Below are positions 931 to 15,865 of a DNA stretch of 15,865 nt, in pieces. The notes beneath the pieces were generated by a model, which was given only the letters and a program-made list of their open reading frames with translations, was not told the origin of the DNA and ran no database searches. Source of the DNA: Promethearchaeota archaeon (GTDB lineage Archaea; Asgardarchaeota; Lokiarchaeia; Sigyniarchaeales; SOKP01); the NCBI GenBank assembly GCA_048938005.1, contig JBHLMQ010000064.1:1-15865 (forward strand), in the 5' to 3' direction. How positions within the stretch are numbered: position 1 is the first letter of the stretch; each line of letters starts with the position of its first letter. Made by a program: the position numbers and the translations under genes.

Positions 931-3210
931 GCTATATTGATTCTCCGAGTATTGTGATAGCATATCAAAATCTATATCAATTATTTGATGGTTTCTGTGA
1001 CCAAAAAATGAATAATCTCCATATATTCCCTGCCATTCTATTCTTTTACCAGAATTACTTGTTTCTATGGTATACACTCCGTTATCATTACCAGCATCTC
1101 CACCTGTTACAACAACTTCAAGATCAGAATCGCCATTCAAATCACCAAGTGCAATCCCCACAGGAAGGGCGTCTATCTGATATATCCATGAAATAAGTCC
1201 GTTCTCACCGTTCAAAGCATAAATCTTGTTATCTTTACCTCCTATAACCACCTCCACTTTACCATCACCATCTACATCCCCTAATGATGGATCAGTATTT
1301 AGAGAATTTTCATAAGTCCATAAAACACTTCCATCTTCTCCATTTAAAGCAAATAGGGTTCCCATACCAAGTATTACTACTTCTAGATTCCCATCACCAT
1401 TTATATCACCAACTGCAGGGCTAGAATAAAAACCAAAATAAGGGCCTGCTCCTTCATAAACCCATAATATGCTCCCGTCTTCACCATCTAATACATAGAT
1501 AGTTCTATCACTGCTTCCCACCACCACTTCGAGTTTACCATCTTTATTTAAATCAGCCAGGAGGGGAGAAGAATATATAGAATCTCCTGTTTGAAAAACC
1601 CATAATAAGCTTCCATCTTCACCATTTAATGCATATACATACTGATCAAGAGACCCGACTACTGCTTCAAATTTTCCATCATTATCTATATCTCCTAAAG
1701 CTGGAGAACCCCATATTTCATCTCCTGTTTGATAAGTCCATGTTGTAGTATCAGCTTCGCAATTAAAAGAATATATATTGTGATCATCAGATCCTACAAC
1801 CGCTTCAAGATTTCCATCTCCATCTATATCTCCTAATGCTGGAATACCCCTAACAACACCTCCCACATCATATACTCTTATAAAATTTCCATCCTCAGCA
1901 TCCAATTGATAAAGTAATCCATTAATCTCCGCTATAAGAATTTCAAGCTTGCCATCATTATCCATATCTCCCAATACTGGGGATGAAAAAACCCAATCAT
2001 AGGTATAGATATCCCAAAGTGTAGTTCCATCTTCCCCATTTAAAGCAAGAATACAATAACTCCCACCTAATTTCCCAAAGACGACTTCTAACTTACCATC
2101 CATATCTATATCTGCTAATGCTGGAGAACCAACTATATCATAGAAGTATTGCGAAGTTTTCCATAATAATCTTGGGACTATTATCTTTGAGAGATCAGCA
2201 ATTGCTAATCCCGAATTATAATCTGCTATATATGCATAATCTCCACTCACATAAACACTACGTGCACTTCCAATCGTATCCTCATATACAGGAATTCCTG
2301 GATTTGTTGGGTTAGAAATGTCAATGACAGCCAACCCATAATCATAATCCGCGACATAAGCACAATCCCCACTTACATAAACTCCAGTTGCATACCCCTT
2401 TGTATCCTCATAAATTGGAGTTCCAGGATTCGTTGGGTCAGAAACATTAATGATTGCTAAACCACTAAGATCATTCGCTACATAGGCGTAGTTTCCACTC
2501 ACACGAACTTCTGTTGCATAGTCAGGAGTACTACGATACAATGGAGTTCCTGGATTCATTGGGTCGGAAACATCAATGATTGCTATTCCCGAAGTATACG
2601 TAGCTACATAAGCATACCCCCCACTCACGTATACATCCCATCCATAACCATTCGTATCTCTATATATAGGATCTCCTGGGGTTGTAGGATCAGAAACATC
2701 AATAATGGCTAAACCTGAAGTAGAAACTGCTACGTAAGCATACCCTCCGCTTACGTAGACGCCTAATGCTTGCGCATTTGTATCTTTATATACAGGATTT
2801 CCTGGGTTTGTAGGATCAGAAACATCAATAATAGCTAAACCTGAATAGGAAACCGCTATATAAGCATATCCTCCACTTACGAAAATATCCCCTGCAAATC
2901 CATTGGTATCCCTATAAATAGGAACTCCAGGGTTTATAGGATCAGAAATGTTGACGATGGCTAGTCCAGAATTTCCATCAGCAACATAGGCATAATTTCC
3001 ACTTACAAATACATCCACTGCAACCCCTGTAGTATTTTGGTAATATATAGAAGATTTTTTAAGCTCTTGTGGTATATTATTTACATCTACATGAATATTA
3101 TTAGAGAAATCAAATTTATTAATCAATAAGTTTGAGTTTAGAAGAAAAGGAAAGTTAATGATTAAAAGCCCTAATAAGAGTATTAAATATACTTTTTTCA
3201 AATTTTTCAC
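1..3210 (-). CDS. Large secreted/cell-surface repeat protein (signal peptide + LVIVD beta-propeller + FG-GAP/PQQ-like beta-propeller + TSP3-like Ca2+-binding repeats); 3' end beyond the window
   Basis: Manual minus-strand translation from GTG at 3210 (MKNLKKVYLILLLGLLIINFPFLLNS..., basic then hydrophobic N-terminus) stays open to base 1, giving 1070 codons. It contains 7 x 'VSGxYAYVA...GLAIIDVSDP' units, 8 x 'P(A/V)LGD(I/L)DxDGKLEVV' units and 'DPNDDDSDDDGLTDGEEVTTYLT' repeats. The start codon choice is inferred. Confidence 0.93.
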   Translation of the reverse strand, partial: MKNLKKVYLILLLGLLIINFPFLLNSNLLINKFDFSNNIHVDVNNIPQELKKSSIYYQNTTGVAVDVFVSGNYAYVADGNSGLAIVNISDPINPGVPIYRDTNGFAGDIFVSGGYAYIAVSYSGLAIIDVSDPTNPGNPVYKDTNAQALGVYVSGGYAYVAVSTSGLAIIDVSDPTTPGDPIYRDTNGYGWDVYVSGGYAYVATYTSGIAIIDVSDPMNPGTPLYRSTPDYATEVRVSGNYAYVANDLSGLAIINVSDPTNPGTPIYEDTKGYATGVYVSGDCAYVADYDYGLAVIDISNPTNPGIPVYEDTIGSARSVYVSGDYAYIADYNSGLAIADLSKIIVPRLLWKTSQYFYDIVGSPALADIDMDGKLEVVFGKLGGSYCILALNGEDGTTLWDIYTYDWVFSSPVLGDMDNDGKLEILIAEINGLLYQLDAEDGNFIRVYDVGGVVRGIPALGDIDGDGNLEAVVGSDDHNIYSFNCEADTTTWTYQTGDEIWGSPALGDIDNDGKFEAVVGSLDQYVYALNGEDGSLLWVFQTGDSIYSSPLLADLNKDGKLEVVVGSSDRTIYVLDGEDGSILWVYEGAGPYFGFYSSPAVGDINGDGNLEVVILGMGTLFALNGEDGSVLWTYENSLNTDPSLGDVDGDGKVEVVIGGKDNKIYALNGENGLISWIYQIDALPVGIALGDLNGDSDLEVVVTGGDAGNDNGVYTIETSNSGKRIEWQGIYGDYSFFGHRNHQIIDIDFDMLSQYSENQYSTDPNDSDSDDDGMPDGWEITHGFDPLISDSGGDQDSDGLSNLEEYNNGTDPNDDDSDDDGLTDGEEVTTYLTDPNDDDSDDDGLTDGEEVITYLTDPNDDDSDDDGLTDGQEVATYLTDPNDDDSDDDGLTDGQEVTTYLTDPNDDDSDDDGLTDGEEVTTYLTDPNDDDSDDDSLTDGEEVTTYLTDPNDDDSDDDGLTDGEEVTTYLTDPNDDDSEDDGMPDGWEILNGLDPLADDSDGDPDGDELSNLDEYSNGTDPNDDDSDDDGLTDGEEVTTYLTDPNNDDSDDDGLTDGEEVTTYLTDPNDDD
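1060..2170 (-). repeat. Eight FG-GAP-like / PQQ-like beta-propeller blades within the surface protein
   Basis: LADIDMDGKLEV, LGDMDNDGKLEI, LGDIDGDGNLEA, LGDIDNDGKFEA, LADLNKDGKLEV, VGDINGDGNLEV, LGDVDGDGKVEV and LGDLNGDSDLEV; most are followed by an ALNGEDGS(L/V)LW-type motif. Confidence 0.85.
2190..3045 (-). repeat. Seven LVIVD repeats (42-aa / 126-bp period) within the surface protein
   Basis: GNYAYVAD, GGYAYIAV, GGYAYVAV, GGYAYVAT, GNYAYVAN, GDCAYVAD and GDYAYIAD, each followed by a GLAIIDVSDP-like sequence at 126-bp spacing. Confidence 0.9.
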
Positions 3211-3383
3211 TTTTTTTTACATTATTTTTTATTAGATTTTGACAACTAGCAATTTATTCACTTAATTATTAAATCAATAAGGAATGATTTTTTACAATTT
3301 TATAAAAATGCTTATATTAGGTTGTATATAATAAAATATTGGAGGATTCAGATATCTCAAAAATGCTAAAGTAAATCCAAAAA
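3211..3383. promoter_or_regulatory. Divergent AT-rich promoter region between the surface protein and the wHTH regulator
   Basis: 173-bp head-to-head intergenic region with TATA-like boxes (e.g. tttataaa around 3298-3305). Exact promoter elements cannot be assigned. Confidence 0.45.
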
Positions 3384-4166
3384 ATGTCAACTGAAAAACA
3401 AATAACTATTATGAATCAAGCATCAATTGTTTCTAACATTAGTTTAAAGCACCCGAATGTTCAGAGAGTAATAAAAATTGCCGAAGAGATCGTTTCAGAA
3501 GATAAGATTTTATCTTTAGAAAATTTATATTATAAGGCAAAACGAAGGTTAAAAATTCCCCGTAAAGGGTTGAGGTTCATAATCCAGTATTTAGTCAATA
3601 AAAAGGTGTTGGTTGACCAATCAAAATTTACCCGACATTCAATTTTAGAACATCCTCTTAGAAAGTCAATTTATTATTTTATAAAGGATAATTTGGGTGT
3701 TCATTTATCTACTATTCGAAACTATTTCCATTCTGAAAATACGGGAACAGGGCAACTACTTTGGCATTTAGATATGCTATTAAAATTTAATTACATAAAA
3801 TCCATAAAAATGAAGAAATATTTAATATTTCTTCCCCGAGAGATTGATGATGAATCTGGGATCATCTATTTCTTGCTTAGAGATGAATTAAACTTTAGAA
3901 TTGTTCAATTATTATTAAAAAAAAAAGAATTAAAAAGATCAGATATCTATAAGAAGCTAGCAGAATCCCGTGAATTAGTATATTATCATCTAAATAATCT
4001 AATAGATGATAAGTTGATTAAAATTAAAGAAGATAAATATGTCTATATTAACCCTAAAAAAGTTTTATTTTGTGTTCCAATATATTCCATGAAGTTTTAT
4101 GAAGACACCCAAGATGCTTTGGAATTCAGGGATGGAAAAAAAATGTCTGATAAAACTCAAGAATAG
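3384..4166 (+). CDS. Winged helix-turn-helix transcriptional regulator (tandem wHTH, ArsR-like C-terminal domain)
   Basis: 260 aa, basic. The segments LEHPLRKSIYYFIKDNLGVHLSTIR...GQLLWHLDMLLKFNYIK and LRDELNFRIVQLL...RELVYYHLNNLIDDKLI match the archaeal tandem wHTH pattern. The N-terminal ~60 aa may be a third wHTH. Confidence 0.8.
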   Translation: MSTEKQITIMNQASIVSNISLKHPNVQRVIKIAEEIVSEDKILSLENLYYKAKRRLKIPRKGLRFIIQYLVNKKVLVDQSKFTRHSILEHPLRKSIYYFIKDNLGVHLSTIRNYFHSENTGTGQLLWHLDMLLKFNYIKSIKMKKYLIFLPREIDDESGIIYFLLRDELNFRIVQLLLKKKELKRSDIYKKLAESRELVYYHLNNLIDDKLIKIKEDKYVYINPKKVLFCVPIYSMKFYEDTQDALEFRDGKKMSDKTQE

Positions 4167-4171
4167 AATAA

Positions 4172-4190
4172 TTTTTTTCTTTTTTCTTTC
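4172..4190 (+). terminator. Oligo-T archaeal-type terminator after the wHTH gene
   Basis: T-rich tract (T runs interrupted by single C) starting 6 nt after the TAG stop at 4164-4166. Confidence 0.5.
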
Positions 4191-4272
4191 TATGATTTAC
4201 TGGGTGATAACCATCTCACAAGCGATAGGAATACAATGCTTTCATCCTTCATTTAAAGAAAAAGGGGGAGAT

Positions 4273-4479
4273 ATGATATTAAACAATGGTCTTTTTATTA
4301 TTCTTAATATTACTACATTTATTATCAGTTTATATCTTTTATTTGCAGTAATTTTACCTCTAGGTCCTCCATCTGAAGTTTTGATGGTCTATCTAGCATT
4401 ACCTCCATTATTTATTGGAATAGGAACCGTAACTCCATTGATATATTTTGGAATTAAAAAATTGAGTAAGATTGAATAA
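4273..4479 (+). CDS. Small two-TM-helix membrane protein (68 aa), hypothetical
   Basis: Same frame as track ORF 4099..4479, but ATG 4273 follows a purine-rich GGGGGAG motif and lies downstream of the wHTH terminator. Two hydrophobic segments are linked by GPPSE, with a basic tail. Confidence 0.6.
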   Translation: MILNNGLFIILNITTFIISLYLLFAVILPLGPPSEVLMVYLALPPLFIGIGTVTPLIYFGIKKLSKIE

Positions 4480-4494
4480 CTTACCAAAAAATAA

Positions 4495-6312
4495 TTATTT
4501 TATATAACTTCCAAATTGATCAAGTTTTCTTAATTGTTCTGAATTGAAAATAGGTCCATCTTTACAAACAGATACATCATTATTTTCACCAATACAACAT
4601 GAACCGCATAATCCTACACCACATTTCATTTTCCTTTCAAGTGATGCCTGTATTTCAATATTATTTGAATCAGCGATCTCAAGTACCCGCTTCATCATTA
4701 CTTCTGGACCGCACGTTATAATTAGGTCAATATTATTCTCTACTAATATATCTTCAATAGTATCAGTAACAAAGCATTTTTTCCCAACTGATCCATCATC
4801 TGTACTACACATCGTATTAGGAATAAGATCAATTAATCTATCACCAAATATCAATGATGCTTCATCTTTTGCGCCTATTGTGACAATCATGTTTTTCTTA
4901 TTTAATTTTAAAGGTTTAATTAGTGATGTTAGAGCAGCAATTCCCATACCACCACCAACTATAAGAATATTGGATGCATCTTCGTAATCCCAAGAATTCC
5001 CGAAAGGACCTCTAATACCAATATTATCGCCTTCATTCAGTTCAAATAATTTAGTGGTACCTTCACCTATTTTTTGTACAGTAATTTCAATAAGATTGCC
5101 ATCTATATTTGAGATAGACATTGGCAAAAAATCAATATCTGGAAGCCACAAGATCACGAACATTCCTGGTCTATATGCTCTTGCAATTCTTTCGTTCCTA
5201 ACAATGAAACTTTTAATTTCTGCGGAATGTTCTATTATAGATTCTATTTTTACTAAATCTGTTTTATATCGAGTAATATTTAAAACCATTTCCTCATTAT
5301 CTTTTGTTAAATCCTTTTGTTCTAGAATCCCCTTTTCAAGTGCTAAATCGTAAATTTCCTTTCCTCGTTCTGTTCTAACTATTAATGTCCTCCACCCCTC
5401 TTCACTCCCTATATTTCCTACGGAGATATCTGCAAATGATGCTGTATAATCAGAACATGAAAAACAAGCATTTCGAATAGCTTTATCATAAATAAAATTA
5501 AGTGGAATTTCTTTAGGAGAATTGTTAGTAATAATTTTCATTTTAAAGTTACTTTTTTCAGTGGTAATTTTAGAAATCTCATTAGAATTTATATCATATT
5601 GTTTAAAACATTCAGATAACAACTGATTATGATATGTCCCAAAGCAAAAAGTTCCAATTGACAATGTTACTAGATCAAATGCTTCAAAATCAAATCTTGG
5701 ATGATATTGCATTTTTCTAAGAGCTTGTATTTGACAAGGTGTACCAATTACAGCAATATCAGCAAATTCTTTATTTATTGCATCACCTATTAAAGAAAGA
5801 GTTGGACTTTGACTTGGTTTATATCCAACACTTTTGTATAATTCCTGTTGATTTATAGCAATTACAGGGAACGGTCTAAATTCTTCATCTTTATCAGTGA
5901 CTATAGCCGCATCAATCATTTTTGCTTCTAGAGCTATAGATAATAATGCAGTTATAGGCCCAGTTTCCATTGGGAGCTTGCCTTTAGCTTTATCAGTTAA
6001 TTTAACTGACACTATCCTAATATAATGCCCTAAAATTTTATCCTGTTTTTTACCAAATACCCATTTGTCTAACAATGATAGAGATATTTGATCTAATCCA
6101 GTTTTTGGACATAAATTATAACATAAACCGAATCCATCTCGACATGTACTCAAATCTTTACAAGATCCATCCTCAATAGGTATTTCTTTATCATAATCAA
6201 ACCTAATATTCGCACAAAATGCTCCACATGCCCCACAGTACAAACATTTACCAGTTTTAATTATTTCCGAATCTAATTCTTGCCAGCCTTTTTTAATTTT
6301 ATCAATATACAT
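4495..6312 (-). CDS. pyrK: Fusion protein: N-terminal ferredoxin + FrhB/FdhB/FpoF-type F420-binding domain joined to a C-terminal PyrK-type (dihydroorotate dehydrogenase electron transfer subunit; FAD/NAD/[2Fe-2S]) domain
   Basis: N half: CLYCGACGAFC, GLCYNLCP, VIGTPCQIQALRK, IGTFC, CFSCSDYTASFADISVG and LIVRTERG (FrhB family). C half, from about 5255: RPGMFVILW, IRGPFGN, VGGGMGIA, CGPEVMM, SLERKMKCGVGLCGSC and VCKDGPIF (PyrK/FNR family). Confidence 0.88.
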   Translation of the reverse strand: MYIDKIKKGWQELDSEIIKTGKCLYCGACGAFCANIRFDYDKEIPIEDGSCKDLSTCRDGFGLCYNLCPKTGLDQISLSLLDKWVFGKKQDKILGHYIRIVSVKLTDKAKGKLPMETGPITALLSIALEAKMIDAAIVTDKDEEFRPFPVIAINQQELYKSVGYKPSQSPTLSLIGDAINKEFADIAVIGTPCQIQALRKMQYHPRFDFEAFDLVTLSIGTFCFGTYHNQLLSECFKQYDINSNEISKITTEKSNFKMKIITNNSPKEIPLNFIYDKAIRNACFSCSDYTASFADISVGNIGSEEGWRTLIVRTERGKEIYDLALEKGILEQKDLTKDNEEMVLNITRYKTDLVKIESIIEHSAEIKSFIVRNERIARAYRPGMFVILWLPDIDFLPMSISNIDGNLIEITVQKIGEGTTKLFELNEGDNIGIRGPFGNSWDYEDASNILIVGGGMGIAALTSLIKPLKLNKKNMIVTIGAKDEASLIFGDRLIDLIPNTMCSTDDGSVGKKCFVTDTIEDILVENNIDLIITCGPEVMMKRVLEIADSNNIEIQASLERKMKCGVGLCGSCCIGENNDVSVCKDGPIFNSEQLRKLDQFGSYIK

Positions 6313-6906
6313 TTAATTTCCCTCCTGGAGTTGCTCCATGAATTCTTGAGCTTCTTTTTTTCCAAGTTCGAATGCTTCTAGATTTTTTTCCAAAGTAGAA
6401 CTAGGTACAAATTTTTTAATTGTTTGAATTGCAGATTCTTCAGAAATGATTCCAGAAAGGATTGAAAATGCCCCAAATAAGATTGAGTTACCATATACTA
6501 TGTTTCCGAATTTTTCAACAGCTAATTTCTGAACAGGAATGCTTAAAGATTTTAAGCTTTTTGCAGATTTGAACTCTCTAATAGTTGATGGATCCCATAT
6601 TAAAAAACCTGTATTATTGTCTTGCTTTAAATCACCTTTTTTGACCCCATCCGCAGATGCTTGAGATAATATGATTAAGAAATCATATGGTTTTAATGCT
6701 TTAGGATAATCTATTATTTTTACATTTTTATCTAAATCAACAACGACTTCTGCCCAACATCTACCACCCCGTGCTTCTGCTGAATATGCTTCAGTTTGAG
6801 TGGCTGCTAAATTCTCATACAGTGCACTTGCAGTAATAATCATCTTACTGAGAGTTATAACACCTTGTCCTCCAAAACCAGAGATACGTATTTCAAATCT
6901 AGCCAT
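6313..6906 (-). CDS. korC: 2-oxoacid:ferredoxin oxidoreductase gamma subunit
   Basis: EIRISGFGGQGVI, YSAEARGG, NSILFGAF and NLEAFELG motifs; follows the beta subunit. The symbol reflects family and gene order; the substrate is unproven. Confidence 0.9.
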   Translation of the reverse strand: MARFEIRISGFGGQGVITLSKMIITASALYENLAATQTEAYSAEARGGRCWAEVVVDLDKNVKIIDYPKALKPYDFLIILSQASADGVKKGDLKQDNNTGFLIWDPSTIREFKSAKSLKSLSIPVQKLAVEKFGNIVYGNSILFGAFSILSGIISEESAIQTIKKFVPSSTLEKNLEAFELGKKEAQEFMEQLQEGN

Positions 6907-6908
6907 CT

Positions 6909-7826
6909 TTACTTGCCCTCTAATGCAATATTCTGAATTTTAGCATATTGTTCTGAATATTCTGGTTTATCGGGGTCGTATCTGAATTCTCCAATAACAT
7001 ATTTATTAAATAGTTCATCATTAGTCATGAATTTGGCACGATTTATCCTTACGCAATTTCTTTTTATCCAATCTATCATGATTCCTGTATTGTCCATTAT
7101 TTCACCTTCTTCTCCCATATCTTCCGTTCCTAGACTATCTAAATTTTTTCTTCCAAAATATGTAACACAGGGAATAATTACTTCAATAACAGAAGTTCCT
7201 TTATGCCTTAATGCTTTTTTAAAATATTTCATTAAAGTTCGAGGATGGGCAACCGTAGTTCTTGCCACATAGGTTGCTCCAGCAGCAAGAGCAAGGTTCA
7301 CACCGTCACTTCTACTTTCAAACATTTTATACGGTGTTGTTGAACTAATTGCTCCATATAAAGTTGTTGGTGCGCTTTGTCCTCCAGTCATAGCATAAAT
7401 ACTATTATTAAACACTAATATGACACAATCTATGTTTCTTCGACAGATATGAATAAAATGATTTCCACCAATTCCTAAAGCATCTCCATCCCCAGAAAAT
7501 ACTATAGGTTTCATTTTAGGATTTGCCATTTTCATACCGGTTGCCATTGCTGGTGCTCTACCATGAAGTGCTAGAAATTTCTGTGAAGCGTGATGTACCA
7601 ATAATAATAATTGACTATAACAACCTATACCAATTATTACAGGATATAATTTAGGATCTAATTTTTCATCTTCAAAAACACGAGTGAATAGATGTCCTAT
7701 TATTCCATAGCCACATCCTGCACAGAATCTAGATGAATATGTGCCCAATAAATGTCCTCCCAAAGAATGCATTACGTAAGGATGCTCTAATTTTTCTTTT
7801 GGATACCTAGGTCCTAACCCTGACAT
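6909..7826 (-). CDS. korB: 2-oxoacid:ferredoxin oxidoreductase beta subunit (TPP-binding)
   Basis: FCAGCG, GIGC, LHGRAPAMATG, SGDGDALGIGGNH...NNSIYAMTGGQ and PCVT motifs; GGAGGT SD and TAATG overlap with the alpha subunit. Confidence 0.92.
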   Translation of the reverse strand: MSGLGPRYPKEKLEHPYVMHSLGGHLLGTYSSRFCAGCGYGIIGHLFTRVFEDEKLDPKLYPVIIGIGCYSQLLLLVHHASQKFLALHGRAPAMATGMKMANPKMKPIVFSGDGDALGIGGNHFIHICRRNIDCVILVFNNSIYAMTGGQSAPTTLYGAISSTTPYKMFESRSDGVNLALAAGATYVARTTVAHPRTLMKYFKKALRHKGTSVIEVIIPCVTYFGRKNLDSLGTEDMGEEGEIMDNTGIMIDWIKRNCVRINRAKFMTNDELFNKYVIGEFRYDPDKPEYSEQYAKIQNIALEGK

Positions 7827-9007
7827 TATTTGGCCACCTCCCTTATAACTTTTAAAATATCATTTGGGTGATGGAAGTCGACTACTTTCGGAATTCTTAT
7901 AATGGGAGTTTCAAGTTTAGTAACCCTTTCAACTTGTTCTGCTATAAAACCGGTATAATTTAATTCTGGTACTATGATTGCCTTAGCATCTTTGACTACA
8001 TTTCTTACTTTATCATCTGGAAAAGGCCATACTGTTATTAATCTAAATATTCCAACTTTTATCCCTTCTTTGCGAGCGACATCAACAGCTCGATAGCTCG
8101 TTCTTACTGGTAAACCATAGGAAATAATAACTATATCTGCATCATCCAACTTATATGTTTCTGTTAAAGAAATTTTATCCATATTAGACCTTATTTTCTC
8201 AAATAACGTTTCTGTATATTCTAATACCCTAGAAGTTGGAAGTCCTATTGAATTATGAGGTTGATGAAGAAACATTAATGGGCAATAATCTGTCCCTATT
8301 ATTGGAGGTTTTGGGATAATATATTCTCCAGTATTCTCATCTTTATATGAAAATTTATTTTTAAAATCTTTCGGTAATTCACGATTAATTACTCTCTTCA
8401 ATATTTCTTCACTTGATGGAATATTAACTGACTCATGAAGATGACCTAAATACGCGTCAGAAATAATAAATACAGGACAACGATAAGTTTCAGCAAAATT
8501 AAATGCAGTAATGGTTAAATCGAAAAGTTCTTGGCAATTCATCGGTGCCAAGGCAATAACTTGAAATTCTCCATTTCCAGGGAAACGTATCATCCCTAAA
8601 TCATTATGATGTGGTTCTGTGACGAATCCAGTTCCAGGCCCATTTCTCATAACATCTGCAAAAACAAAAGGGATTTCAAGATTAGCTGCCATGCTTATTG
8701 TTTCGACCATTAAAGAAAATCCAGGTCCTGAGGTGGCTGTCATGGATTTTGCTCCTACTAATGATGCTCCAATAACTGCATTAATGGATGCTAATTCATC
8801 CTCCATCTGTATACAACAACCACCTATTTCGGGTAATCGTTTAGCAAAATGTTCGATAACTTCCGTACTTGGAGTAATCGGATATCCTCCAAAAAATTTA
8901 AGACCTGCTGCAATAGCTCCTTCTGCCATAGCAACATTACCCATTAAAACATGGGTGCCCTCTGGTAAAAATTTCATACTTTTTTCTCCACTCAATCTAT
9001 TCACCAT
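7826..9007 (-). CDS. korA: 2-oxoacid:ferredoxin oxidoreductase alpha subunit
   Basis: GNVAMAEGAIAAG, GYPITPSTE, QMEDELAS, TATSGPGFSLM and RLITVWPFP motifs. Confidence 0.92.
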   Translation of the reverse strand: MVNRLSGEKSMKFLPEGTHVLMGNVAMAEGAIAAGLKFFGGYPITPSTEVIEHFAKRLPEIGGCCIQMEDELASINAVIGASLVGAKSMTATSGPGFSLMVETISMAANLEIPFVFADVMRNGPGTGFVTEPHHNDLGMIRFPGNGEFQVIALAPMNCQELFDLTITAFNFAETYRCPVFIISDAYLGHLHESVNIPSSEEILKRVINRELPKDFKNKFSYKDENTGEYIIPKPPIIGTDYCPLMFLHQPHNSIGLPTSRVLEYTETLFEKIRSNMDKISLTETYKLDDADIVIISYGLPVRTSYRAVDVARKEGIKVGIFRLITVWPFPDDKVRNVVKDAKAIIVPELNYTGFIAEQVERVTKLETPIIRIPKVVDFHHPNDILKVIREVAK

Positions 9008-9008
9008 A

Positions 9009-9284
9009 CTAAATTTTTACTTTTTCAGTCGCAATTTCTTTTTCTTCTTCTAAAACATAAATACTCCAATCAGGACAGCAATATTCACATCTACGGCACC
9101 CAGTGCAATACGCCGCTTTCCCTTCTTTTACTTTAGGGATATATGCAATTCTATAATTTAATTCATCACTCATTTCCAAAATACCTGTTGGACATATAAC
9201 TACGCAAGCCCTGCAACCACCACATCTGTCCCTATTTAGGAATAAAGAAAAGTTTTTTTCTTTATTTTCTATTAATTTCGGCAT
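9009..9284 (-). CDS. korD: 2x[4Fe-4S] ferredoxin / 2-oxoacid:ferredoxin oxidoreductase delta subunit
   Basis: CGGCRACVVICP and CTGCRRCEYCCPD motifs; 1 bp from the alpha subunit start. Confidence 0.88.
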   Translation of the reverse strand: MPKLIENKEKNFSLFLNRDRCGGCRACVVICPTGILEMSDELNYRIAYIPKVKEGKAAYCTGCRRCEYCCPDWSIYVLEEEKEIATEKVKI

Positions 9285-9314
9285 TTTATCAACTTTTAAG
9301 AAGAGTACTTAATT

Positions 9315-9325
9315 AAAAAAAAAAA
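9315..9325 (-). terminator. T11 tract, possible terminator after the MttB-family gene
   Basis: Eleven consecutive A on the + strand (T on the minus strand), about 30 nt downstream of the TGA stop at 9355-9357. Confidence 0.5.
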
Positions 9326-9354
9326 TCTTTGAATTGTTATTAATTTAGGGAAAT

Positions 9355-10782
9355 TCACTTTAAATGTTCATTTGCAATTTTATCCAATTCTTTTACGAGT
9401 TCTTCACTAATGGGTTTAATTGGCGATTTATTTAGCAATTTTGAAGCTTGCTCTTTTGCCCTCTGTCTTGCAGATTTGGATCCTGCCTCTCTCCACGAAT
9501 CACGAGTCATTCTGTCAATAATTAAACTAGGGAGGAACAATTCTTTTTTAAAATATTTCAAAGTTGAAGGATGAGATAATAATTCTTCTTTATCTCCATA
9601 ATCTTTCAGGATTTCTGACGCAAAGGGGGATCCATAATCTTCAATACCTTGGAGAAATCTCTTAACCATCCCTATAATTTCATTATCAATTATTAACTTT
9701 TCAATACTCTGCGTGGATTCAAAATCAAGCATTCCGGGCCCAGAAACCATATTAATTCCTGCTAATCCTGCTAATAATGCTCCCATTCCCGCCTCGAAAC
9801 CAGCTTGACTATCAGGAATTTTAGAATCACTTAAACTCATATAAGCATGAGTAGGTATGTTCAAAAACTTTCCTATCTCAATATCACCTAAATTTATCAT
9901 CATTGTTTCAATTGCCCCCATAGGAGTTGTTCCGTATTTCATATCAAAAACAGCAGGAGAACCACCCCATATCAATGGCGCTGCCTTTTTCGTTAATTGA
10001 ACAATTACTACTCCTGCAAGGCATTCAGCACAGTGTTGGGTAATAGATCCTATTAAAGTGATTGGAGCATTAGCGCCAGCTAACGGCATTGAAACAAATT
10101 CCGAAGGGATCATACTTTTAGCTGCATCAATTAAAGATTGAGTTGTAAGATCAGACCATTTAAGAGGGGGGCTAGGACAAGCATCAAATATGGCTAATGG
10201 CTTTCTTGCTAAATCAACTTCTGATAATCTACATGCTAAAAGGATTTTTTGCATAATCGAAAAACTTTCTTTACGAAATGTTCCAGTTACAATAGGCTTA
10301 TAACAGTTAGATAAAGCAATATATAATCTATGCCAATCTTGGGCTTTTTTTGGAACATCCTGATAAATTAAAGCTGTACTTTGAGCATCAATATATTTTA
10401 ATTGCTCAACAACCTTTGAAAATCTGATAAAATCTTTTGATAAACCCTCTCTAATTTCTCCTGTTTCCTCATCAAGTATAAAAATAGCAGCGGATCCAGG
10501 ATCAAAATTAACATTATCTTTCTTTAGTGAAATATGTTTATTACCCTCTCGATCATAAAGATTAATTTCACTTGGTACAGTTTTTAAACATTTATCAATC
10601 AAATCTGGTGGAATAAAAAAACGTGAATCCTTATTGTCTATATTATGTTGATTAAATAGTTCAATTGCCTCTTGATTCTCAATAAAGATGCCTTGAACTT
10701 CAAGAATAGATTTTGCTTCCTCTAGGATTAATTTTTTATGTTCGTCATCTAAAATTTTTATCTTTGGTCGAATAATAGGCAT
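9355..10782 (-). CDS. mttB: Trimethylamine methyltransferase (MttB) superfamily protein, non-pyrrolysine type (amine/betaine:corrinoid methyltransferase)
   Basis: 475 aa. SPPLKW, GANAPITLIGSITQHCAECLAG, DMKYGTTPMGAIE, SDSKIPDSQAGFE and GMLD...SIEKLIIDNEI are MttB-family motifs. There is no in-frame TAG; Leu (TTA 9832-9834) precedes SDSK at the Pyl-equivalent position. Confidence 0.9.
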   Translation of the reverse strand: MPIIRPKIKILDDEHKKLILEEAKSILEVQGIFIENQEAIELFNQHNIDNKDSRFFIPPDLIDKCLKTVPSEINLYDREGNKHISLKKDNVNFDPGSAAIFILDEETGEIREGLSKDFIRFSKVVEQLKYIDAQSTALIYQDVPKKAQDWHRLYIALSNCYKPIVTGTFRKESFSIMQKILLACRLSEVDLARKPLAIFDACPSPPLKWSDLTTQSLIDAAKSMIPSEFVSMPLAGANAPITLIGSITQHCAECLAGVVIVQLTKKAAPLIWGGSPAVFDMKYGTTPMGAIETMMINLGDIEIGKFLNIPTHAYMSLSDSKIPDSQAGFEAGMGALLAGLAGINMVSGPGMLDFESTQSIEKLIIDNEIIGMVKRFLQGIEDYGSPFASEILKDYGDKEELLSHPSTLKYFKKELFLPSLIIDRMTRDSWREAGSKSARQRAKEQASKLLNKSPIKPISEELVKELDKIANEHLK

Positions 10783-10809
10783 TTAGATATTCTCCCTTAT
10801 TTTATAATT

Positions 10810-11688
10810 CTAAAGAGAATCAATAATTCTTCGGATTTCTTTAATTGTTTTTGGAGATGTGCCACAACATCCCCCAACGATTTTTGCTCCTAGTTCAATC
10901 ATTTCTTGAATGTCATTAGCAAATCGCTTTATAGGTTGTTCATAATAAGTTTTATCCCCTTTAATTATAGGTTGACCTGCATTAGGTTTTACTGAAAGTG
11001 GTTTATTGGTAACTTCTACTGCATCCTTTAACAATTCAAGCATATCATTGGATCCTAATGTACAATTTGCTCCAATTACATCTACATTCTCATTATCTAA
11101 AGCTTTGATACATTTTTCCAATGAATTTCCCATTATTGTAAAGAAACCTCTTTTAGTCTTTTTATATGTAATTGAGGCAATTAAAGGTTTCTTAGAGACT
11201 TCTCGTACTGCTTTAATTGCTGTTAACATTTCTTCAAGATCCGAAATTGTTTCAATATGCCAAAGATCAACACCTTTTTCCAACAATTTTGCTTGAGTCG
11301 AGAAGCTAGAATACCATTGCTCATTAGAAGCATTTCCTATTGGTGGTCTAAATTCTCCTGTAGGCCCGATATCACCTACAATCAAGCATCTAGAAGGGCA
11401 TACCTTTTTTATATTTTTTAAAGCATTTTCTATAATCTCTTCAATTCGACTTTCAAGATTATGATGACTTAAATTCAAAGGAGTTGAGCCAAAAGTATTT
11501 GTTTGACACATATCTGAGCCAGCATCATAATATGATTTATGAATTTCAGAAATTATTTCTGGTTGTTCGATATTTAAGATATCTGGAATTTTCCCAGATG
11601 TTACCTTTCTTTTAATTAATTCAGTTCCAAATCCTCCATCGAAGAGTATGATCTTGGAATCATCATTTAACCAATCTTGAAATGACAT
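10810..11688 (-). CDS. Stand-alone homocysteine S-methyltransferase (MetH N-terminal / BHMT-type Zn-binding domain)
   Basis: LFDGGFGTEL, IHKSYYDAGSD, TNTFG, GDIGPTG, IETISDLEE, IGANC, KPNAGQP and IVGGCCGTSP motifs (three Zn-ligand Cys). At 292 aa it has no pterin- or B12-binding domain. Confidence 0.92.
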   Translation of the reverse strand: MSFQDWLNDDSKIILFDGGFGTELIKRKVTSGKIPDILNIEQPEIISEIHKSYYDAGSDMCQTNTFGSTPLNLSHHNLESRIEEIIENALKNIKKVCPSRCLIVGDIGPTGEFRPPIGNASNEQWYSSFSTQAKLLEKGVDLWHIETISDLEEMLTAIKAVREVSKKPLIASITYKKTKRGFFTIMGNSLEKCIKALDNENVDVIGANCTLGSNDMLELLKDAVEVTNKPLSVKPNAGQPIIKGDKTYYEQPIKRFANDIQEMIELGAKIVGGCCGTSPKTIKEIRRIIDSL

Positions 11689-11720
11689 ATTTTATTTAAT
11701 CACTCCAAAAACTATAAAAA

Positions 11721-12368
11721 TTACTTATTTATAAGAGATTTAACTAATTTGACAGCTTCAATAGCATTTTCAGCAAATCCATCAGCATTACACTCTTCTA
11801 CCCATTTGCTTGTTACAGGAGCACCTCCGAGAATGACCTTGAACCTGTCAGCCATTTTTTTTTCTTTTAAATGATCAATAACTTTTTTCTGTCCAATCAT
11901 GGTAGTTGTTAAAAGAGCAGAAACACCAATTATGTTAGCATCTTTTTCTATAGCTTTTGCGATAATTGTTTCAACAGGAACATCCGCACCTAAATCATAT
12001 ACTTCATAACCATAAGCTCTTAACATTGTAGCTACAATAGTTTTTCCGATCGAATGAATATCTCCCTCTATTGTTGCCATTACAACGATACCACGGGAAA
12101 TTTTGTTCAATGTATCTTGAAGATGTGGAATTAGAAGATCTAAACAATTTTGCATTATTTGTGCTCCACGCATTAACTCGGGTAAGAAATATTCACCATC
12201 TTCCCATAATTCTCCAACTTTCCGAATTCCAGCGGCAAATCCGTTTTCAATAACATCAAGTAAATTCATACTTTCCTTTATGGCTTTATTTGCATATTCA
12301 AGGGCTTTTTCTTCGTCTAAATTTACGATAGCTGATGATATCTCTTCATAAACTTCTTCTTTTGACAC
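11721..12368 (-). CDS. Methyltransferase cognate corrinoid protein (MttC/MtbC/MetH cap + B12-binding domain)
   Basis: VGELWEDGEYFLPELM cap motif, EGDIHSIGK (DxHxxG base-off His-on), SALLTTTM and GGAPV; GTG start preceded by GGAG. Confidence 0.93.
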   Translation of the reverse strand: MSKEEVYEEISSAIVNLDEEKALEYANKAIKESMNLLDVIENGFAAGIRKVGELWEDGEYFLPELMRGAQIMQNCLDLLIPHLQDTLNKISRGIVVMATIEGDIHSIGKTIVATMLRAYGYEVYDLGADVPVETIIAKAIEKDANIIGVSALLTTTMIGQKKVIDHLKEKKMADRFKVILGGAPVTSKWVEECNADGFAENAIEAVKLVKSLINK

Positions 12369-12515
12369 TTTGATTTCTCCAGAAAATTAGTTAAATCATA
12401 ATTAAAAGTAAAAATATTACTTATTTACATATATGAAATTAATAAAACCTTTTTGTTAAATCGAAAAAAATATTTGTTAATGTTCTTTTTTAAATTCAGT
12501 TCTAAATAAACAAAA
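12369..12515. promoter_or_regulatory. Divergent AT-rich promoter region (methyltransferase cluster / hisS)
   Basis: 147-bp head-to-head intergenic region, very AT-rich, with several TATA-like stretches; no structured riboswitch is evident. Confidence 0.45.
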
Positions 12516-13892
12516 TTGAGTGATTGGATGTCTAAAAAGTTTTCTAAAGAACCACTTAGAGGAATGGATGACTATTACCCAGCTGATTTGCGCGAGGTTA
12601 ATTGGATAATTGAAAACATTAAAGATGTTGCAGAAAGATATGGTTATGAAGAATATGAAACTCCACAAATAGAGCCTGTTGAAATTTTTGCTGCTAAATC
12701 TTCTGATGAATTGGTTAATGAACAATCATTTATAATGGAAAAAAAAGAAGGAGAAAGACTTATTTTAATCCCAGAACTTACTCCCTCTTTAGCTCGAATG
12801 GTTGCAAAGAAAAGCCAAGAGCTCAAGAAACCTATTCGGTGGTTTTCTATACCAACATGTTTCAGATATGAAAGACCTCAGAAGGGTCGCCGAAGGGCTT
12901 TCATTCAACCTAATATAGATATTTTAGGTGAAGAAAGTCTTTATGCGGATCTTGAGATCTTCAACATAATTGTAGATATTTTTACTCAATTTGGAGCTAC
13001 TTCAGAGCAATTTCAAATTTATTATAATAGCAGACGATTTATGGACTCAGTATGTAAGTATATACTTGAAATAAGAGAAGATATGTCGCCTTTAGTTTTC
13101 AAAATATTAGATAAATCTGATAAAATGGATGATACTGAATTTGAAAAACTTGTAATTGAGACATTTCAAGATGAAGTTATAATTCAAGGCATATTAAAAT
13201 TGAAAGATGCTAAAGGTGTTAGTGAGTTATTAAAAAAATTTGATAATATACCAGAAGGATTTTATGAGTCTAAAGGTTATCTCGAATTGATAAATTTTGA
13301 ACAATTAATAAAAGAAGTAGATATTTCTAATTACTGTACATTTTCTTCAGGAACAGTCAGGGGACTTGATTATTATACTGGAATAATTTATGAAGTATTT
13401 GATACTGGAAAAGAAAATATAAGAAGTATTTTTGGAGGAGGTCGCTATGATGACCTTCTATCAATATTTTCAGATGAAAAAATAACTGGTACAGGATTTG
13501 GTATGGGAGTTTATATGTTTTCCTTGTTTTTAAAAACTTACAATTTAATTCCAGAGGAAATTAAAGAGAAAGACTATAGTGATACAATATACATTGCATC
13601 TATAAATGAAGATATGTCAACATATGCATTTGAACTTGCTAGAACTATCCGGGACGAAGATTTTCCATGTATTATTGATTATAGATTTAAAAACCTAAAA
13701 AATCAATTAAAAAAAGCCAGTGATTTAGGAATTATTATCGTTTTAATTTTAGGACCAGAAGAATTAGCAGAAAGAAAAGTAACAATTAGGAATATGATCT
13801 CTGAAGAACAAAAAACTATTTTTTTCGATGAAGTAATAGATGAGATCTACCAAATTATTGATGAATTTAGCGATAATAAATTTGACCAATAA
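12516..13892 (+). CDS. hisS: Histidine--tRNA ligase
   Basis: RGMDDY, PELTPSLAR, FRYERPQKGR, VRGLDYYTG, GGGRYDDL and GFGMG motifs plus a C-terminal anticodon-binding domain. The start is TTG 12516 or ATG 12528. Confidence 0.96.
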   Translation: MSDWMSKKFSKEPLRGMDDYYPADLREVNWIIENIKDVAERYGYEEYETPQIEPVEIFAAKSSDELVNEQSFIMEKKEGERLILIPELTPSLARMVAKKSQELKKPIRWFSIPTCFRYERPQKGRRRAFIQPNIDILGEESLYADLEIFNIIVDIFTQFGATSEQFQIYYNSRRFMDSVCKYILEIREDMSPLVFKILDKSDKMDDTEFEKLVIETFQDEVIIQGILKLKDAKGVSELLKKFDNIPEGFYESKGYLELINFEQLIKEVDISNYCTFSSGTVRGLDYYTGIIYEVFDTGKENIRSIFGGGRYDDLLSIFSDEKITGTGFGMGVYMFSLFLKTYNLIPEEIKEKDYSDTIYIASINEDMSTYAFELARTIRDEDFPCIIDYRFKNLKNQLKKASDLGIIIVLILGPEELAERKVTIRNMISEEQKTIFFDEVIDEIYQIIDEFSDNKFDQ

Positions 13893-14003
13893 ATATTTTA
13901 TTTTATGATATCAGATATTGGATTTAAAATACCCGAAGAGATTAAAAGGAATCCAGAATCGAAACTGGGTCTCTTCTTAAATTAATCGAGGTTTATAATT
14001 AAT

Positions 14004-14972
14004 ATGAATAATTGGTTAAAAAAGTTGAAATATGATCCTTTATCCAGTTTATCTAGTACAAAAAATAAAGCAATTCAATATTTCGTCAAGCGAGATCTAT
14101 TAGAAGAGGAGGTTGAGCCAATCGAAACGATTTGGGAAGAATTATACGCACAAAAAATAATACGGAAGCAATTAACCGATGGATCATGGAAACCAACCGG
14201 AAAATCTAGTCAATATAACGAGAATAGGCACTTATGGGCGGTTTTTAAGAGTCTGAGAGAGTTAATACCTAAGTATGGCTTAAATAAAAAGCACGAATGT
14301 GCGCAAAAAGCCGCTGAGTTTATTTTTAGATGTCAAACAGAGGAAGGTGATATTAGAGGTATTTACGCGAATCAATATATGCCTAATTATATGGGTGCTT
14401 TGATGGAACTCTTAAATAAAGCAGAATTCCACGACGATCCAAGAATGGAGAAGGGATTTCAATGGTTTCTCTCGATGAGACACATGGATGGAGGTTGGGG
14501 ATTGCCTATGTTAACAAAATCCCTTCCTTGGCAAGAGGTTTACACCTTACCCAAACCAATTTCCCCTGATAAAACAAAACCTTCCTCGCACTGGTTAACA
14601 GGAATGGTGCTGCGAGCGTTTGCCACTCATCCTAAATACAAAAATTGTAAAGAGGCAAAAGAGGCGGGAACTCTTCTAATTTCCCGATTTTTTCAAAGAG
14701 ATAAATATAGTTCACGACAAGATAAAAGTTATTGGGTCAAATTTTACATTCCATTTTTTTGGACCGACATTTTATCGGCTTTGGATACAGTTTCAAAGCT
14801 AGGATTTTCTAAAGACGAGCCTAAGATTAAAGAAGGGCTTCAATATTTTATAGACGAGCAACAATCAGATGGTCGTTGGAGTTTGCACTTTATGATGATG
14901 AAGAACGATCCTGATAACTCTTATTGGTTCGATTTGGAAGTCTGCCGGGTTTTTAAGAGGTTTTATAATTAA
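14004..14972 (+). CDS. Prenyltransferase/squalene-cyclase (QW) repeat alpha/alpha-barrel protein, function unknown
   Basis: QW-like motifs KQLTDGSW, CQTEEGDI, MRHMDGGW and EQQSDGRW; GAGGT SD upstream; 322 aa (one barrel); no DxDD cyclase motif in the expected context. Confidence 0.72.
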   Translation: MNNWLKKLKYDPLSSLSSTKNKAIQYFVKRDLLEEEVEPIETIWEELYAQKIIRKQLTDGSWKPTGKSSQYNENRHLWAVFKSLRELIPKYGLNKKHECAQKAAEFIFRCQTEEGDIRGIYANQYMPNYMGALMELLNKAEFHDDPRMEKGFQWFLSMRHMDGGWGLPMLTKSLPWQEVYTLPKPISPDKTKPSSHWLTGMVLRAFATHPKYKNCKEAKEAGTLLISRFFQRDKYSSRQDKSYWVKFYIPFFWTDILSALDTVSKLGFSKDEPKIKEGLQYFIDEQQSDGRWSLHFMMMKNDPDNSYWFDLEVCRVFKRFYN

Positions 14973-15057
14973 TAATTATTAATTAAAAAAATTGATTTCA
15001 ATAAGAAGGCATTCAAATCGCTAATTTTTTTAGAAACTACCTCCTATTTATATTCAG

Positions 15058-15122
15058 ATAGAACATTTTAAGAGATTTAAGGATAAAATATCCTTGCCAA
15101 AAATTTCTAAAATGTTGACTAT
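15058..15122. other. Long imperfect inverted repeat / hairpin upstream of pyrF
   Basis: aaggata(15079-85)-aaa-tatcctt(15089-95) is a perfect 7-bp stem. It is enclosed by gagattt/aaatttc and by the perfect 9-bp pair aacatttta(15062-70)/taaaatgtt(15108-16), extendable by atag/ctat. Confidence 0.55.
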
Positions 15123-15188
15123 TCATTGTTAAAAATTATTAAGTGCATTATCAAGATTATTTAAAATTAACAAAAATCTTTACTAATT

Positions 15189-15865
15189 ATGAATTTTGTC
15201 GAGGATTTAATTCAATCAATAAAAGAAAAGAAAAACGTTATTTGTATGGGACTTGATCCTAGAATGGATAATGAGGGAGAAATTCCTCAATATTTAATTC
15301 GAGAATTAGAAGAACCAGATAAAATTATTTCTGAATTTAACAAAATTTTAATTGAAAATACCTATGATTTAATTCCAGTTATTAAACCCCAAATAGCCTT
15401 TTATGAAAAGTATGAAGCTCTAGACGCATTAAAAGAAACCGTAAGATTTGCTCATAAAAATGATTTATTAGTTATATTAGATGCAAAGCGAAATGACATC
15501 GGGAGCACATCTGAAGCGTATGCATATTCTTTATATGAAAATTTTAATGCAGACGCGTGTACGATAAATGCTTACTTAGGATTTGATGGTGTAAAACCAT
15601 TTTTGCATTATAAAGAAAGGGGGGTTTTCATTCTTGTAAAGACATCAAATCCAAGTAGTACAGAATTTCAGGATTTATTTAGTGTAAGATTGGAAGATAT
15701 TTCTAACGATATTGTTCAATATAAAGCTGAAACACAAATTTTAAAGAGGAATTATATCCAAATCGCAGAATTAATAAATAAATGGAGCAAAAATCTATCA
15801 CGATTTTCTGATTTCACTAATTTAGGAGCAGTAGTGGGGGCAACTTTTTCTCAAGAATTAAAAAA
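15189..15865 (+). CDS. pyrF: Orotidine-5'-phosphate decarboxylase, type 2 subfamily (partial; runs off the window)
   Basis: Manual translation MNFVEDLIQSIKEKKNVICMGLDPR...KPQIAFYE...ILDAKRNDIGST...TINAYLGFD...VKTSNPSS...GAVVGAT, with the catalytic DxKxxD motif. It is absent from the ORF track because there is no stop in the window. Confidence 0.95.
   Translation, partial: MNFVEDLIQSIKEKKNVICMGLDPRMDNEGEIPQYLIRELEEPDKIISEFNKILIENTYDLIPVIKPQIAFYEKYEALDALKETVRFAHKNDLLVILDAKRNDIGSTSEAYAYSLYENFNADACTINAYLGFDGVKPFLHYKERGVFILVKTSNPSSTEFQDLFSVRLEDISNDIVQYKAETQILKRNYIQIAELINKWSKNLSRFSDFTNLGAVVGATFSQELK

Follow-up and report, generated by a model that had tools for sequence, protein, structure and literature searches.

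A putative split, cobalamin-dependent methionine synthase with an MttB-family protein in Asgard archaea

Three adjacent genes in a 15,865-nt stretch of DNA from a Promethearchaeota archaeon (contig JBHLMQ010000064.1, positions 1 to 15,865; referred to here as the window) encode a corrinoid carrier protein, a homocysteine-binding barrel and an MttB-family protein. This trio raises the question of which methyl transfer the three products would carry out together, and from which donor. The answer that we favour, with moderate confidence, is that the three genes make up a single operon and that their products are a MetH-like, cobalamin-dependent methionine synthase, split into separate proteins and devoid of a folate or pterin module. 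The MttB-family barrel would move a methyl group from a small donor to the Co(I) form of the MttC-like corrinoid protein. The resulting methyl-Co(III) corrinoid protein would dock on the zinc/homocysteine barrel, where the zinc-activated homocysteine thiolate would accept the methyl group to give methionine and Co(I) again. That methyl groups flow between these proteins, that methionine is what they make and that the donor is of the class proposed below is inferred; the co-occurrence of the genes and their order are strict across Asgard lineages and several bacterial phyla.

Organisation of the gene cluster

The ORF listing of the window, which has a G+C content of ~31%, places the three open reading frames (ORFs) next to one another on the minus strand, in the order corrinoid protein, homocysteine barrel, MttB-family protein. 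The gene for the corrinoid carrier protein (11721..12368; 215 aa) starts with GTG and is followed, after a 32-nt spacer (11689..11720), by the homocysteine barrel gene (10810..11688; 292 aa, ATG start) and, after a further 27-nt spacer (10783..10809), by the MttB-family gene (9355..10782; 475 aa, ATG start). GGAG motifs are found at 12380-12377, 8 nt ahead of the GTG of the corrinoid gene, at 11706-11703 inside the first spacer, 14 nt ahead of the homocysteine-gene ATG, and at 10795-10792 inside the second, 9 nt ahead of the mttB ATG. An earlier note on this DNA had described three co-oriented genes with 32- and 27-nt gaps and a GGAG for each start, and the ORF table and the sequence agree with it exactly. 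The GTG start of the corrinoid gene is backed by the consensus N-terminus MSxExFY of 64 homologues.

The trio is separated from the divergent hisS gene by an unstranded, AT-rich intergenic region of 147 nt (12369..12515), which presumably holds the promoter of the trio. Oligo-T tracts terminate archaeal transcription, and a run of 11 T on the minus strand (9315..9325), 30 nt 3' of the mttB stop codon, is a likely termination signal of this kind that would part the trio from the ferredoxin and oxidoreductase genes beyond it. A scan for bacterial (sigma-70) signals, a model inapplicable to archaea, gave 14 promoter-like sites against 17.4 expected and one terminator-like site against 2.0.

The corrinoid protein and the homocysteine barrel

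The corrinoid protein is built of a helical cap and a Rossmann domain, and matches PF02607 (75.8 bits) and PF02310 (96.7 bits) in Pfam. It passes TIGR02370, the model for cognate corrinoid proteins of methylamine methyltransferases (221.6 bits, cut-off 215.3), and does not reach the substrate-specific models for MtgC (210 bits against 310) and MtbC (206 against 350). The nearest solved structure is MttC (7xcn_M, E 6.4e-49), with the cobalamin modules of MetH at ~1e-26. A DxHxxG motif is present, and residues Asp103, His105 and Thr156 align to D105, H107 and T158, the ligand triad of MttC (PMC9842639; here and below, papers are cited for what the available portions of their text state). D103, H105, G108 and T156 are invariant across 64 corrinoid-protein sequences. 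The product is a predicted B12-binding carrier of the MttC/MtmC/MtbC-like cognate type.

The homocysteine protein matches PF02574 with 219.1 bits (E 1.4e-64) in Pfam. Its best NCBIfam matches, the YitJ-type model NF006396 (244 bits, profile positions 9-285 of 611) and metH models, span the homocysteine halves only. The top solved relative is the N-terminal module of MetH (1q7m_A, E 1.5e-57), aligned over residues 11-289 against 13-287. Cys209 (in GANCTLG) and Cys274-Cys275 (in GGCCGT) align to the same cysteines of 1q7m_A, and Glu146 and an FDGG motif (consensus LFDG) also align to MetH. E146 and C209 do not vary among 64 homocysteine-protein sequences, in which the conservation of C274 and C275 is 90% or more. 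In MetH and BHMT such residues bind zinc and homocysteine, and Glu146, FDGG and the three cysteines would do so here. The statement of the earlier note that a Zn-thiol homocysteine domain occupies the slot of the second methyltransferase (MT2) is borne out by the 1q7m_A match and the three aligned cysteines, and the protein is, as far as its sequence tells, a stand-alone MetH-type zinc barrel that would act as the methyl acceptor module. A complex prediction for this protein with the B12 domain of the corrinoid protein (residues 88-215), run without controls, scored 0.01 twice against a mark of 0.32, a result that speaks in neither direction on binding.

Conservation of the trio

Of 2763 candidates from a database search, 1938 are relatives of the homocysteine protein at E<=1e-20. 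The top 120 are 73-100% identical and 279-301 aa long; those with names come from Asgard metagenome-assembled genomes (MAGs), and one public protein (P0001), labelled Promethearchaeota archaeon by NCBI, is identical to that of the window. For a survey of gene neighbourhoods, one genome per species was scanned, and the best 80 of 109 relatives were taken with up to 10 kb on each side (loci L001 to L080). The ORFs of these loci were compared with the window proteins, and 60 archaeal and 20 bacterial loci were told apart by record titles.

All three genes lie on one strand in 56 of the 60 archaeal loci, and the other four (L038, L046, L049, L054) stop at a contig edge exactly there, so that the survey upholds the conservation of the trio. 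Two of the records that carry it, CP070805.1 and CP070831.1, are complete chromosomes. It is contiguous and in the order of the window in 49 loci; in seven Heimdall-labelled loci other genes intervene. Nine of the 20 bacterial loci, from Zixibacteria, KSB1, Cloacimonadota, Acidobacteriota and Aminicenantales, combine the homocysteine gene with an MttB gene of the same clade. The corrinoid gene is also present in five of these nine, and none was seen in the other four. Two bacterial loci (L059, L066) instead have a pterin-binding gene (PF00809) with the homocysteine gene, one (L068) has only the corrinoid gene with it, and in the remaining eight the homocysteine gene occurs without an MttB, pterin-binding or corrinoid gene.

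In 21 Loki-type loci with full-length mttB and homocysteine genes, mttB is 80-86% identical to that of the window, the homocysteine gene 73-86% and the adjacent hisS 74-85%; hisS lies divergently upstream of the trio in 28 loci. The conservation of the trio is in this respect housekeeping-like, judging from these identities. A tree of the homocysteine proteins sets the Loki/Thor-type sequences (51 rows) apart from Heimdall-type and bacterial ones (29 rows). The terms Loki/Thor-type and Heimdall-type are used because records of one MAG series with labels such as Odin-, Hod- or Hermodarchaeota fall within Promethearchaeota in this tree. All 54 archaeal rows of the MttB tree group together (SH-aLRT 93), with the root on a very long outgroup branch. 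Both trees are quick ones, from which no transfer scenario is drawn.

These data bear on the possibility that the three genes adjoin one another but take part in no common reaction, the 292-aa protein being an MmuM-like homocysteine S-methyltransferase that uses S-methylmethionine (SMM) or S-adenosylmethionine (SAM), and the MttB and corrinoid proteins serving an MT2 encoded elsewhere. PF02574 does include such enzymes, and a corrinoid-independent homocysteine S-methyltransferase (5dml_A, 1.7e-14) and BHMT chains (~1e-11) are among the weaker solved matches of the homocysteine protein; yet its similarity to the MetH module is better by ~40 orders of magnitude. In 49 loci the corrinoid gene and mttB flank the homocysteine gene, and the genes are kept together in distant phyla. 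The failure to find fused MttB forms, which would speak for separate functions, is weak evidence, and it stands against the presence of a MetH activation domain, a domain for cobalamin enzymes only, next to the homocysteine gene in 17 loci (see below). Mere neighbourhood is, on balance, improbable.

Activation domain and pterin module

A gene for a SAM-binding MetH activation (reactivation) domain (PF02965; 214-266 aa) was detected within the cluster in 17 loci, with Pfam and with a profile built from the neighbours. Nine of them are Heimdall-type (L049-L055, L061, L067) and eight bacterial (L063, L064, L069, L070, L073, L074, L078, L079). Six Heimdall-type loci have the activation-domain gene immediately between those for the homocysteine barrel and MttB, with an HxlR-type regulator upstream. 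The full set in L050 (8848-13052) and other Heimdall-type loci comprises the HxlR regulator, corrinoid protein, homocysteine barrel, PF02965 protein and MttB. The activation protein has an invariant RFSPGY..W segment and a C-terminal CxxCxxxxC motif, likewise invariant, that falls outside the Pfam match. Since such a domain is useful to cobalamin enzymes only, its presence in the cluster ties the module to methionine synthase.

A pterin-binding gene (PF00809) was found in only two of the 80 loci, L059 and L066, both of which are without MttB and have it following the homologous homocysteine gene; MttB and the pterin module thus appear to fill alternative slots. The Pfam scans of neighbours gave no PF00809 gene beside any MttB-containing locus, and none of the 14 window proteins contains this domain. 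Because PF02965 occurs in the clusters and MttB and pterin genes take alternative positions, the module is most naturally read as a MetH with MttB in the place of the folate module.

The MttB-family protein and its pocket

The 475-aa product matches PF06253 with 241 bits (cut-off 25, E 2e-71), residues 6-467 covering positions 29-489 of the 500 in the profile. Its score on TIGR02369, the model for pyrrolysine-containing MttB, is 366.9 bits over profile positions 3-467 of 469, which is under the cut-off of 525. The solved relatives are 7xcl_A (E 1.2e-53) and 2qne_A (1.7e-49). An AlphaFold2 model (pLDDT 94.4) gave a TM-score of 0.95 to MttB of Methanosarcina barkeri (7xcl_A) and 0.92-0.93 to MtgB of Desulfitobacterium hafniense (9yce, 2qne), and its matches in the ESM Atlas are MTTB-family clusters only. 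Remote structural matches include dihydropteroate synthase barrels (TM ~0.55-0.60, target-normalised; E ~5e-5). The protein is presumed from fold and family to be the methyl-donor:corrinoid methyltransferase (MT1), with the TIM barrel of the MttB superfamily.

The description of this protein as a non-pyrrolysine MttB proved correct, as the ORF has no internal stop and Leu317 lies opposite Pyl334 (X of 7xcl_A). Tyr364 of MttB, which is needed for the pyrrolysine chemistry and whose replacement in Y364F cuts Vmax ~28-fold (PMC9842639), aligns to Ser347. The leucine in place of pyrrolysine, the Tyr364 to Ser347 replacement and the score below the TIGR02369 cut-off rule out MttB in the strict sense. 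The corrin-contacting residues Gly110-Thr111 and Met249 of MttB correspond to Gly96-Ser97 and Met232.

MtgB holds glycine betaine by Y97 and F356 (cation-pi) and by R312 and H348 (carboxylate) (PMC13080624). When these residues were mapped via the alignment with 2qne, in which numbering is native + 16, they corresponded to S97, E355, H312 and a gap beside S347-G348, respectively. All four betaine-binding residues are replaced, and across the 61 members of the clade the replacements show little or no variation; by these residues the protein is not an MtgB. The same source states that R312 is conserved in every characterised family member, where it pairs with the acid group of the substrate, and that all of these enzymes act on acidic quaternary amines (PMC13080624).

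The clade alignment comprises 61 sequences, 54 archaeal (including that of the window) and seven bacterial, with identities of 48-88%. S97, Y314, S347, F354 and E355 are invariant among 85 such positions, and H312 is found in 60 of the 61. Because the pocket residues are invariant and yet unlike those of MttB and MtgB, the clade seems to share one conserved substrate, for which glycine betaine or free trimethylamine, if handled as by the known enzymes, is an unlikely candidate. The combination G96-S97, H/Q312, Y314 and S347-G348 was considered as a signature of the clade and rejected, as it is common in the best ~70 of 150 listed library representatives. F354-E355 is more restricted among these representatives, which come without genomic context.

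No fused form of MttB was found among 7998 scored candidates at E 1e-10, a weak kind of evidence. Two apparent fusions were dismissed. P0329 (590 aa), with an N-terminal extension of 226 residues, has no second Pfam domain, and the 814-aa 'MttB' ORF of L073 is an upstream ORF extension that overlaps the activation-domain gene in another frame.

Comparison with known systems

A closely similar cluster has been reported in bacteria. In Ca. Electryoneota and 'diverse bacteria', genes for a non-pyrrolysine MttB/MtgB homologue, a homocysteine S-methyltransferase, a corrinoid protein and an activation protein are clustered, and a novel corrinoid-dependent methionine synthesis was proposed, the methyl donor being left unspecified (Williams 2022, PMC9324843). 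The same three protein families are clustered there as in the trio, there is no pterin module, and the hypothesis is the same. The MttB homologue of that study falls in an uncharacterised clade nearer MttB than MtgB, in agreement with the 367 bits obtained here with TIGR02369. Of that four-gene set the window holds three, the activation protein being found only in the Heimdall-type and bacterial relatives, and the hosts here are archaea. The novelty is therefore below what the earlier note had assumed, since both cluster and hypothesis are already published for bacteria. In the literature searched, which does not include the organism table of PMC9324843, no description of the Asgard trio was found, and a term search of the available text of Price 2021 on folate-independent methionine synthases (PMC7857596) found no mention of MttB, Asgard or Lokiarchae. 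The Asgard occurrence of the trio appears unreported in this literature. The trio of the window is thus an archaeal representative, without the activation domain, of a kind of cluster for which the bacterial proposal came first.

A functional precedent is MtgBCDE of Ruegeria pomeroyi and Phaeobacter inhibens. In R. pomeroyi one corrinoid protein was shown genetically to serve both glycine betaine demethylation and methionine synthesis, and its loss leads to methionine auxotrophy (Mausz 2025, PMC12478193). Like the trio, MtgBCDE has a corrinoid hub between a PF06253 donor module and a stand-alone homocysteine subunit. However, it needs the pterin-binding protein MtgD for both functions, whereas the trio is without a pterin gene nearby; the 10 kb on either side of each trio showed no MtgD-like gene, with the proviso that MtgBCDE genes are themselves dispersed. 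They are mostly so, and mtgE is usually not near mtgBCD, whereas the genes of the trio are contiguous. The donor of MtgBCDE is glycine betaine and its hosts are aerobes (PMC12478193), while the MttB of the trio is without the betaine-binding residues.

With MetH (1q7m, 8ssc, 8g3h, 9cbr) the trio shares the three zinc cysteines of the barrel and the Asp-His-Thr triad of the B12 domain, and the Heimdall-type and bacterial versions of the cluster share the activation domain as well. Unlike MetH, the trio is split into separate proteins and has no PF00809 barrel, and its corrinoid protein is nearer methanogen MttC than the MetH cobalamin modules (E 6e-49 against ~1e-26). The fold of its MttB is that of MttB-MttC of M. 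barkeri (7xcl, 7xcn) and of MtgB of D. hafniense (2qne, 9yce), and the corrin contacts of M. barkeri MttB are kept as Gly-Thr/Ser (G96-S97) and Met232 (Met249 in MttB). The MT2 partner differs, being a homocysteine barrel in the trio and MtbA, acting on coenzyme M (CoM), or MtgA, acting on tetrahydrofolate, in the known systems.

Methyl donor

The donor is most likely an N-methyl ammonium compound, though neither glycine betaine nor free trimethylamine of known handling. Candidate transporters were considered in this context. A gene for an EamA (DMT) transporter lies within ~7 kb downstream of mttB in 32 archaeal loci (of the set L001-L046 plus L076), inside the Zixibacteria operon of L074 (homocysteine barrel, activation protein, EamA, an ORF and mttB; L074:1764-2681) and near the cluster in L079 (14102-15001). 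It is not present in the window itself. The archaeal copies form two sets without a mutual BLASTP match at 1e-3, so that the association with the trio may have more than one origin. Identity to the L074 protein is 29-35% for one of the sets. The best named model, 'carboxylate/amino acid/amine transporter', scored below its cut-off.

The alternative that has to be weighed here is that the MttB-clade protein is itself a methyl-pterin module, taking methyl-tetrahydromethanopterin (methyl-H4MPT) or methyl-tetrahydrofolate from the C1 pathway of the cell. The clade would then be the first in the superfamily to act on methyl-pterin, methyl-H4MPT in Asgard archaea and methyl-folate in bacteria, and the trio an ordinary de novo methionine synthase, the main B12-dependent one of Asgard archaea. 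The housekeeping-like conservation and the adjoining hisS in 28 loci would fit such a role, as would the replacement of all residues that define betaine or trimethylamine handling, and neither a betaine-type amine transporter nor a catabolic gene is found among the 245 Pfam entries of the neighbours (104 + 70 + 59 + 12, with at least three repeats). However, N-methyl ammonium compounds are the substrates of all characterised superfamily members, according to the available text of PMC13080624. The pocket is invariant between presumed H4MPT archaea and folate bacteria, which in our view fits a small universal donor better, and a full folate-dependent MetH is likewise present in the bacteria from which the cluster was first described (PMC9324843). 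The recurrent EamA transporter, placed inside the cluster in L074, hints at a small molecule that is imported or exported. As to the dihydropteroate synthase barrels among the remote structural matches, the similarity is only at the level of generic TIM barrels.

One locus keeps a methyl-pterin donor in play. In the Aminicenantales locus L077 (365-14616) the genes cooS-acsB-cooC-acsD-acsC-RACo are immediately followed by those for the homocysteine barrel, the corrinoid protein, the clade MttB and a second MttB, and no PF00809 methyltransferase was seen in the 19.7 kb of the locus. The second paralogue is distant (24% identity) and scores 430 bits on TIGR02369. This gene order is a single case, and a methyl-pterin donor is, taking both sides together, rather unlikely.

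Several observations weigh against a split methionine synthase fed by an N-methyl ammonium donor. Some concern the chemistry of cobalt. The PF02965 gene is missing from the window proteins and from all Loki/Thor-type loci, and an activase of the RACo/RamA type occurs in only one of the 80 loci (L077), so the repair of Co(II), which is required, is unaccounted for in the Loki/Thor-type clusters. The activation protein was not found in the 20-kb loci of Loki-type genomes. A database search with the activation profile gave 4639 matches at E<=1e-5, and no Promethearchaeota name is among the 120 listed, where the visible names are Heimdall, 'Asgard group' and Cloacimonetes; many rows are nameless or have truncated names, which makes this weak evidence. 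Others concern the two ends of the methyl route. PF02574 covers, besides MetH, the corrinoid-independent BHMT and the SMM- and SAM-dependent homocysteine methyltransferases, which are the weaker matches here. In the MttB-family protein the family-wide Arg312 is His, and the cation-pi aromatics Y97 and F356 are Ser and Glu, which makes the donor class less certain. Among the neighbour entries there is no betaine transporter of the BCCT or OpuAC kind, and no sarcosine enzyme or enzyme of dimethylglycine catabolism.

Redox genes and other neighbouring genes

Downstream of the T11 run lies a block of oxidoreductase genes on the minus strand (4495..9284), identified with Pfam and NCBIfam and probably outside the module. 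It encodes a 4Fe-4S ferredoxin (9009-9284), the alpha (7826-9007), beta (6909-7826) and gamma (6313-6906) subunits of a 2-oxoacid:ferredoxin oxidoreductase, and a 605-aa FrhB-like/PyrK-like fusion protein (4495-6312). The fusion joins a part like the beta subunit of F420-hydrogenase/dehydrogenase (PF04422, PF04432) to a PyrK-like electron-transfer part with FAD/NAD and 2Fe-2S sites (PF10418; NF000796, 261 bits), and may be an electron outlet for reduced ferredoxin. The block of five genes, including the fusion, recurs in L013, L021, L028, L029, L031 and L076. Oxidoreductase genes follow the trio in ten of 41 contiguous-type loci with >=4 kb downstream (L013, L020, L021, L023, L028-L031, L035, L076) and are absent in the other 31.

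These genes would matter most if the cluster served catabolic methylotrophy, with amine methyl groups used for energy, the barrel methylating another, CoM-like thiol or acting as an overflow sink, and the whole coupled to the oxidoreductases. MttB-like genes of Asgard archaea have been read as methylotrophy genes (PMC11291895, PMC9723677), and in other Asgard lineages MttB-like and MtbC-like genes were taken to indicate quaternary-amine methylotrophy (PMC11291895); the block does follow the trio in the window and in ten related loci. The barrel, however, keeps the features of the homocysteine type (the LFDG motif, E146 and three cysteines that align to MetH, with presumed roles in homocysteine binding), and the cluster carries the MetH activation domain in 17 loci. 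The block is missing in 31 of 41 loci and is parted from the trio by the T11 run in the window, and no MtrH, MtaA/MtbA-type or PF00809 gene was seen adjoining the trio. Catabolic methylotrophy accordingly has only a slight chance of being the role of the cluster.

The earlier note had proposed a modular methionine synthase with MttB in the place of the methyl-folate domain and had linked it to this redox operon. The first part is, at the level of architecture, well supported by comparison: by the conserved module, the MetH-type barrel, PF02965 in 17 loci and the lack of an adjacent pterin gene. The second part fares poorly, as the block accompanies the trio in ten of 41 loci only and the T11 run follows mttB; the redox link is weak, and there is no good ground for joining the trio to these genes.

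In four loci labelled Thor, Hod or Hermod (L047, L048, L057, L080), a gene for a GFO/IDH/MocA oxidoreductase or an OsmC-like protein lies upstream of the trio, and genes for a 575-aa thioredoxin-like protein and an Ldh_2-family dehydrogenase (PF02615, ~400 bits) lie downstream.

The window contains further genes. At its left edge, where the frame is open, a minus-strand gene (1-3210) encodes a repeat protein of >1070 aa with seven LVIVD repeats and an FG-GAP/PQQ-like propeller region. A 69-nt tandem repeat of 11.3 copies within it (positions 1-786) encodes acidic DPNDDDSDDDGLTDGEEV units. On the plus strand, an HVO_0163-type HTH protein (3384-4166) scored 27.6 bits, under the cut-off of 31, and its ORF overlaps the start of a 126-aa hydrophobic ORF without a family match (4099-4479). 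A 322-aa protein encoded at 14004-14972 on the plus strand has a partial match to squalene-hopene cyclase repeats (PF13243, 48 bits, residues 86-166) and is far shorter than a cyclase.

Implications

The presence of MttB homologues is widely taken as a sign of methylotrophy on trimethylamine or quaternary amines, and one paper took them as a methyl source for mercury methylation (PMC12484752). For this clade inferences of these kinds would be unsafe, because its context is that of a methionine synthase and the residues for the known substrates are missing. If the methyl-pterin alternative were true, counts of 'mttB' in sediment metagenomes would overstate the use of methylamines.

The interest of the cluster is moderate, and comes from the fact that nearly all Asgard archaea have it, in highly conserved form, and from the question of the methyl donor, which is well posed biochemically and directly testable. 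Should the trio act in the proposed way, methionine would be made or regenerated in most Asgard archaea by a B12 enzyme that bypasses folate-type carriers, and all methyl groups of SAM in these archaea would depend on the same B12 route. This would bear on the B12 dependence of Asgard archaea, on the supplements used in their culture, and on the methyl compounds that they draw from sediments.

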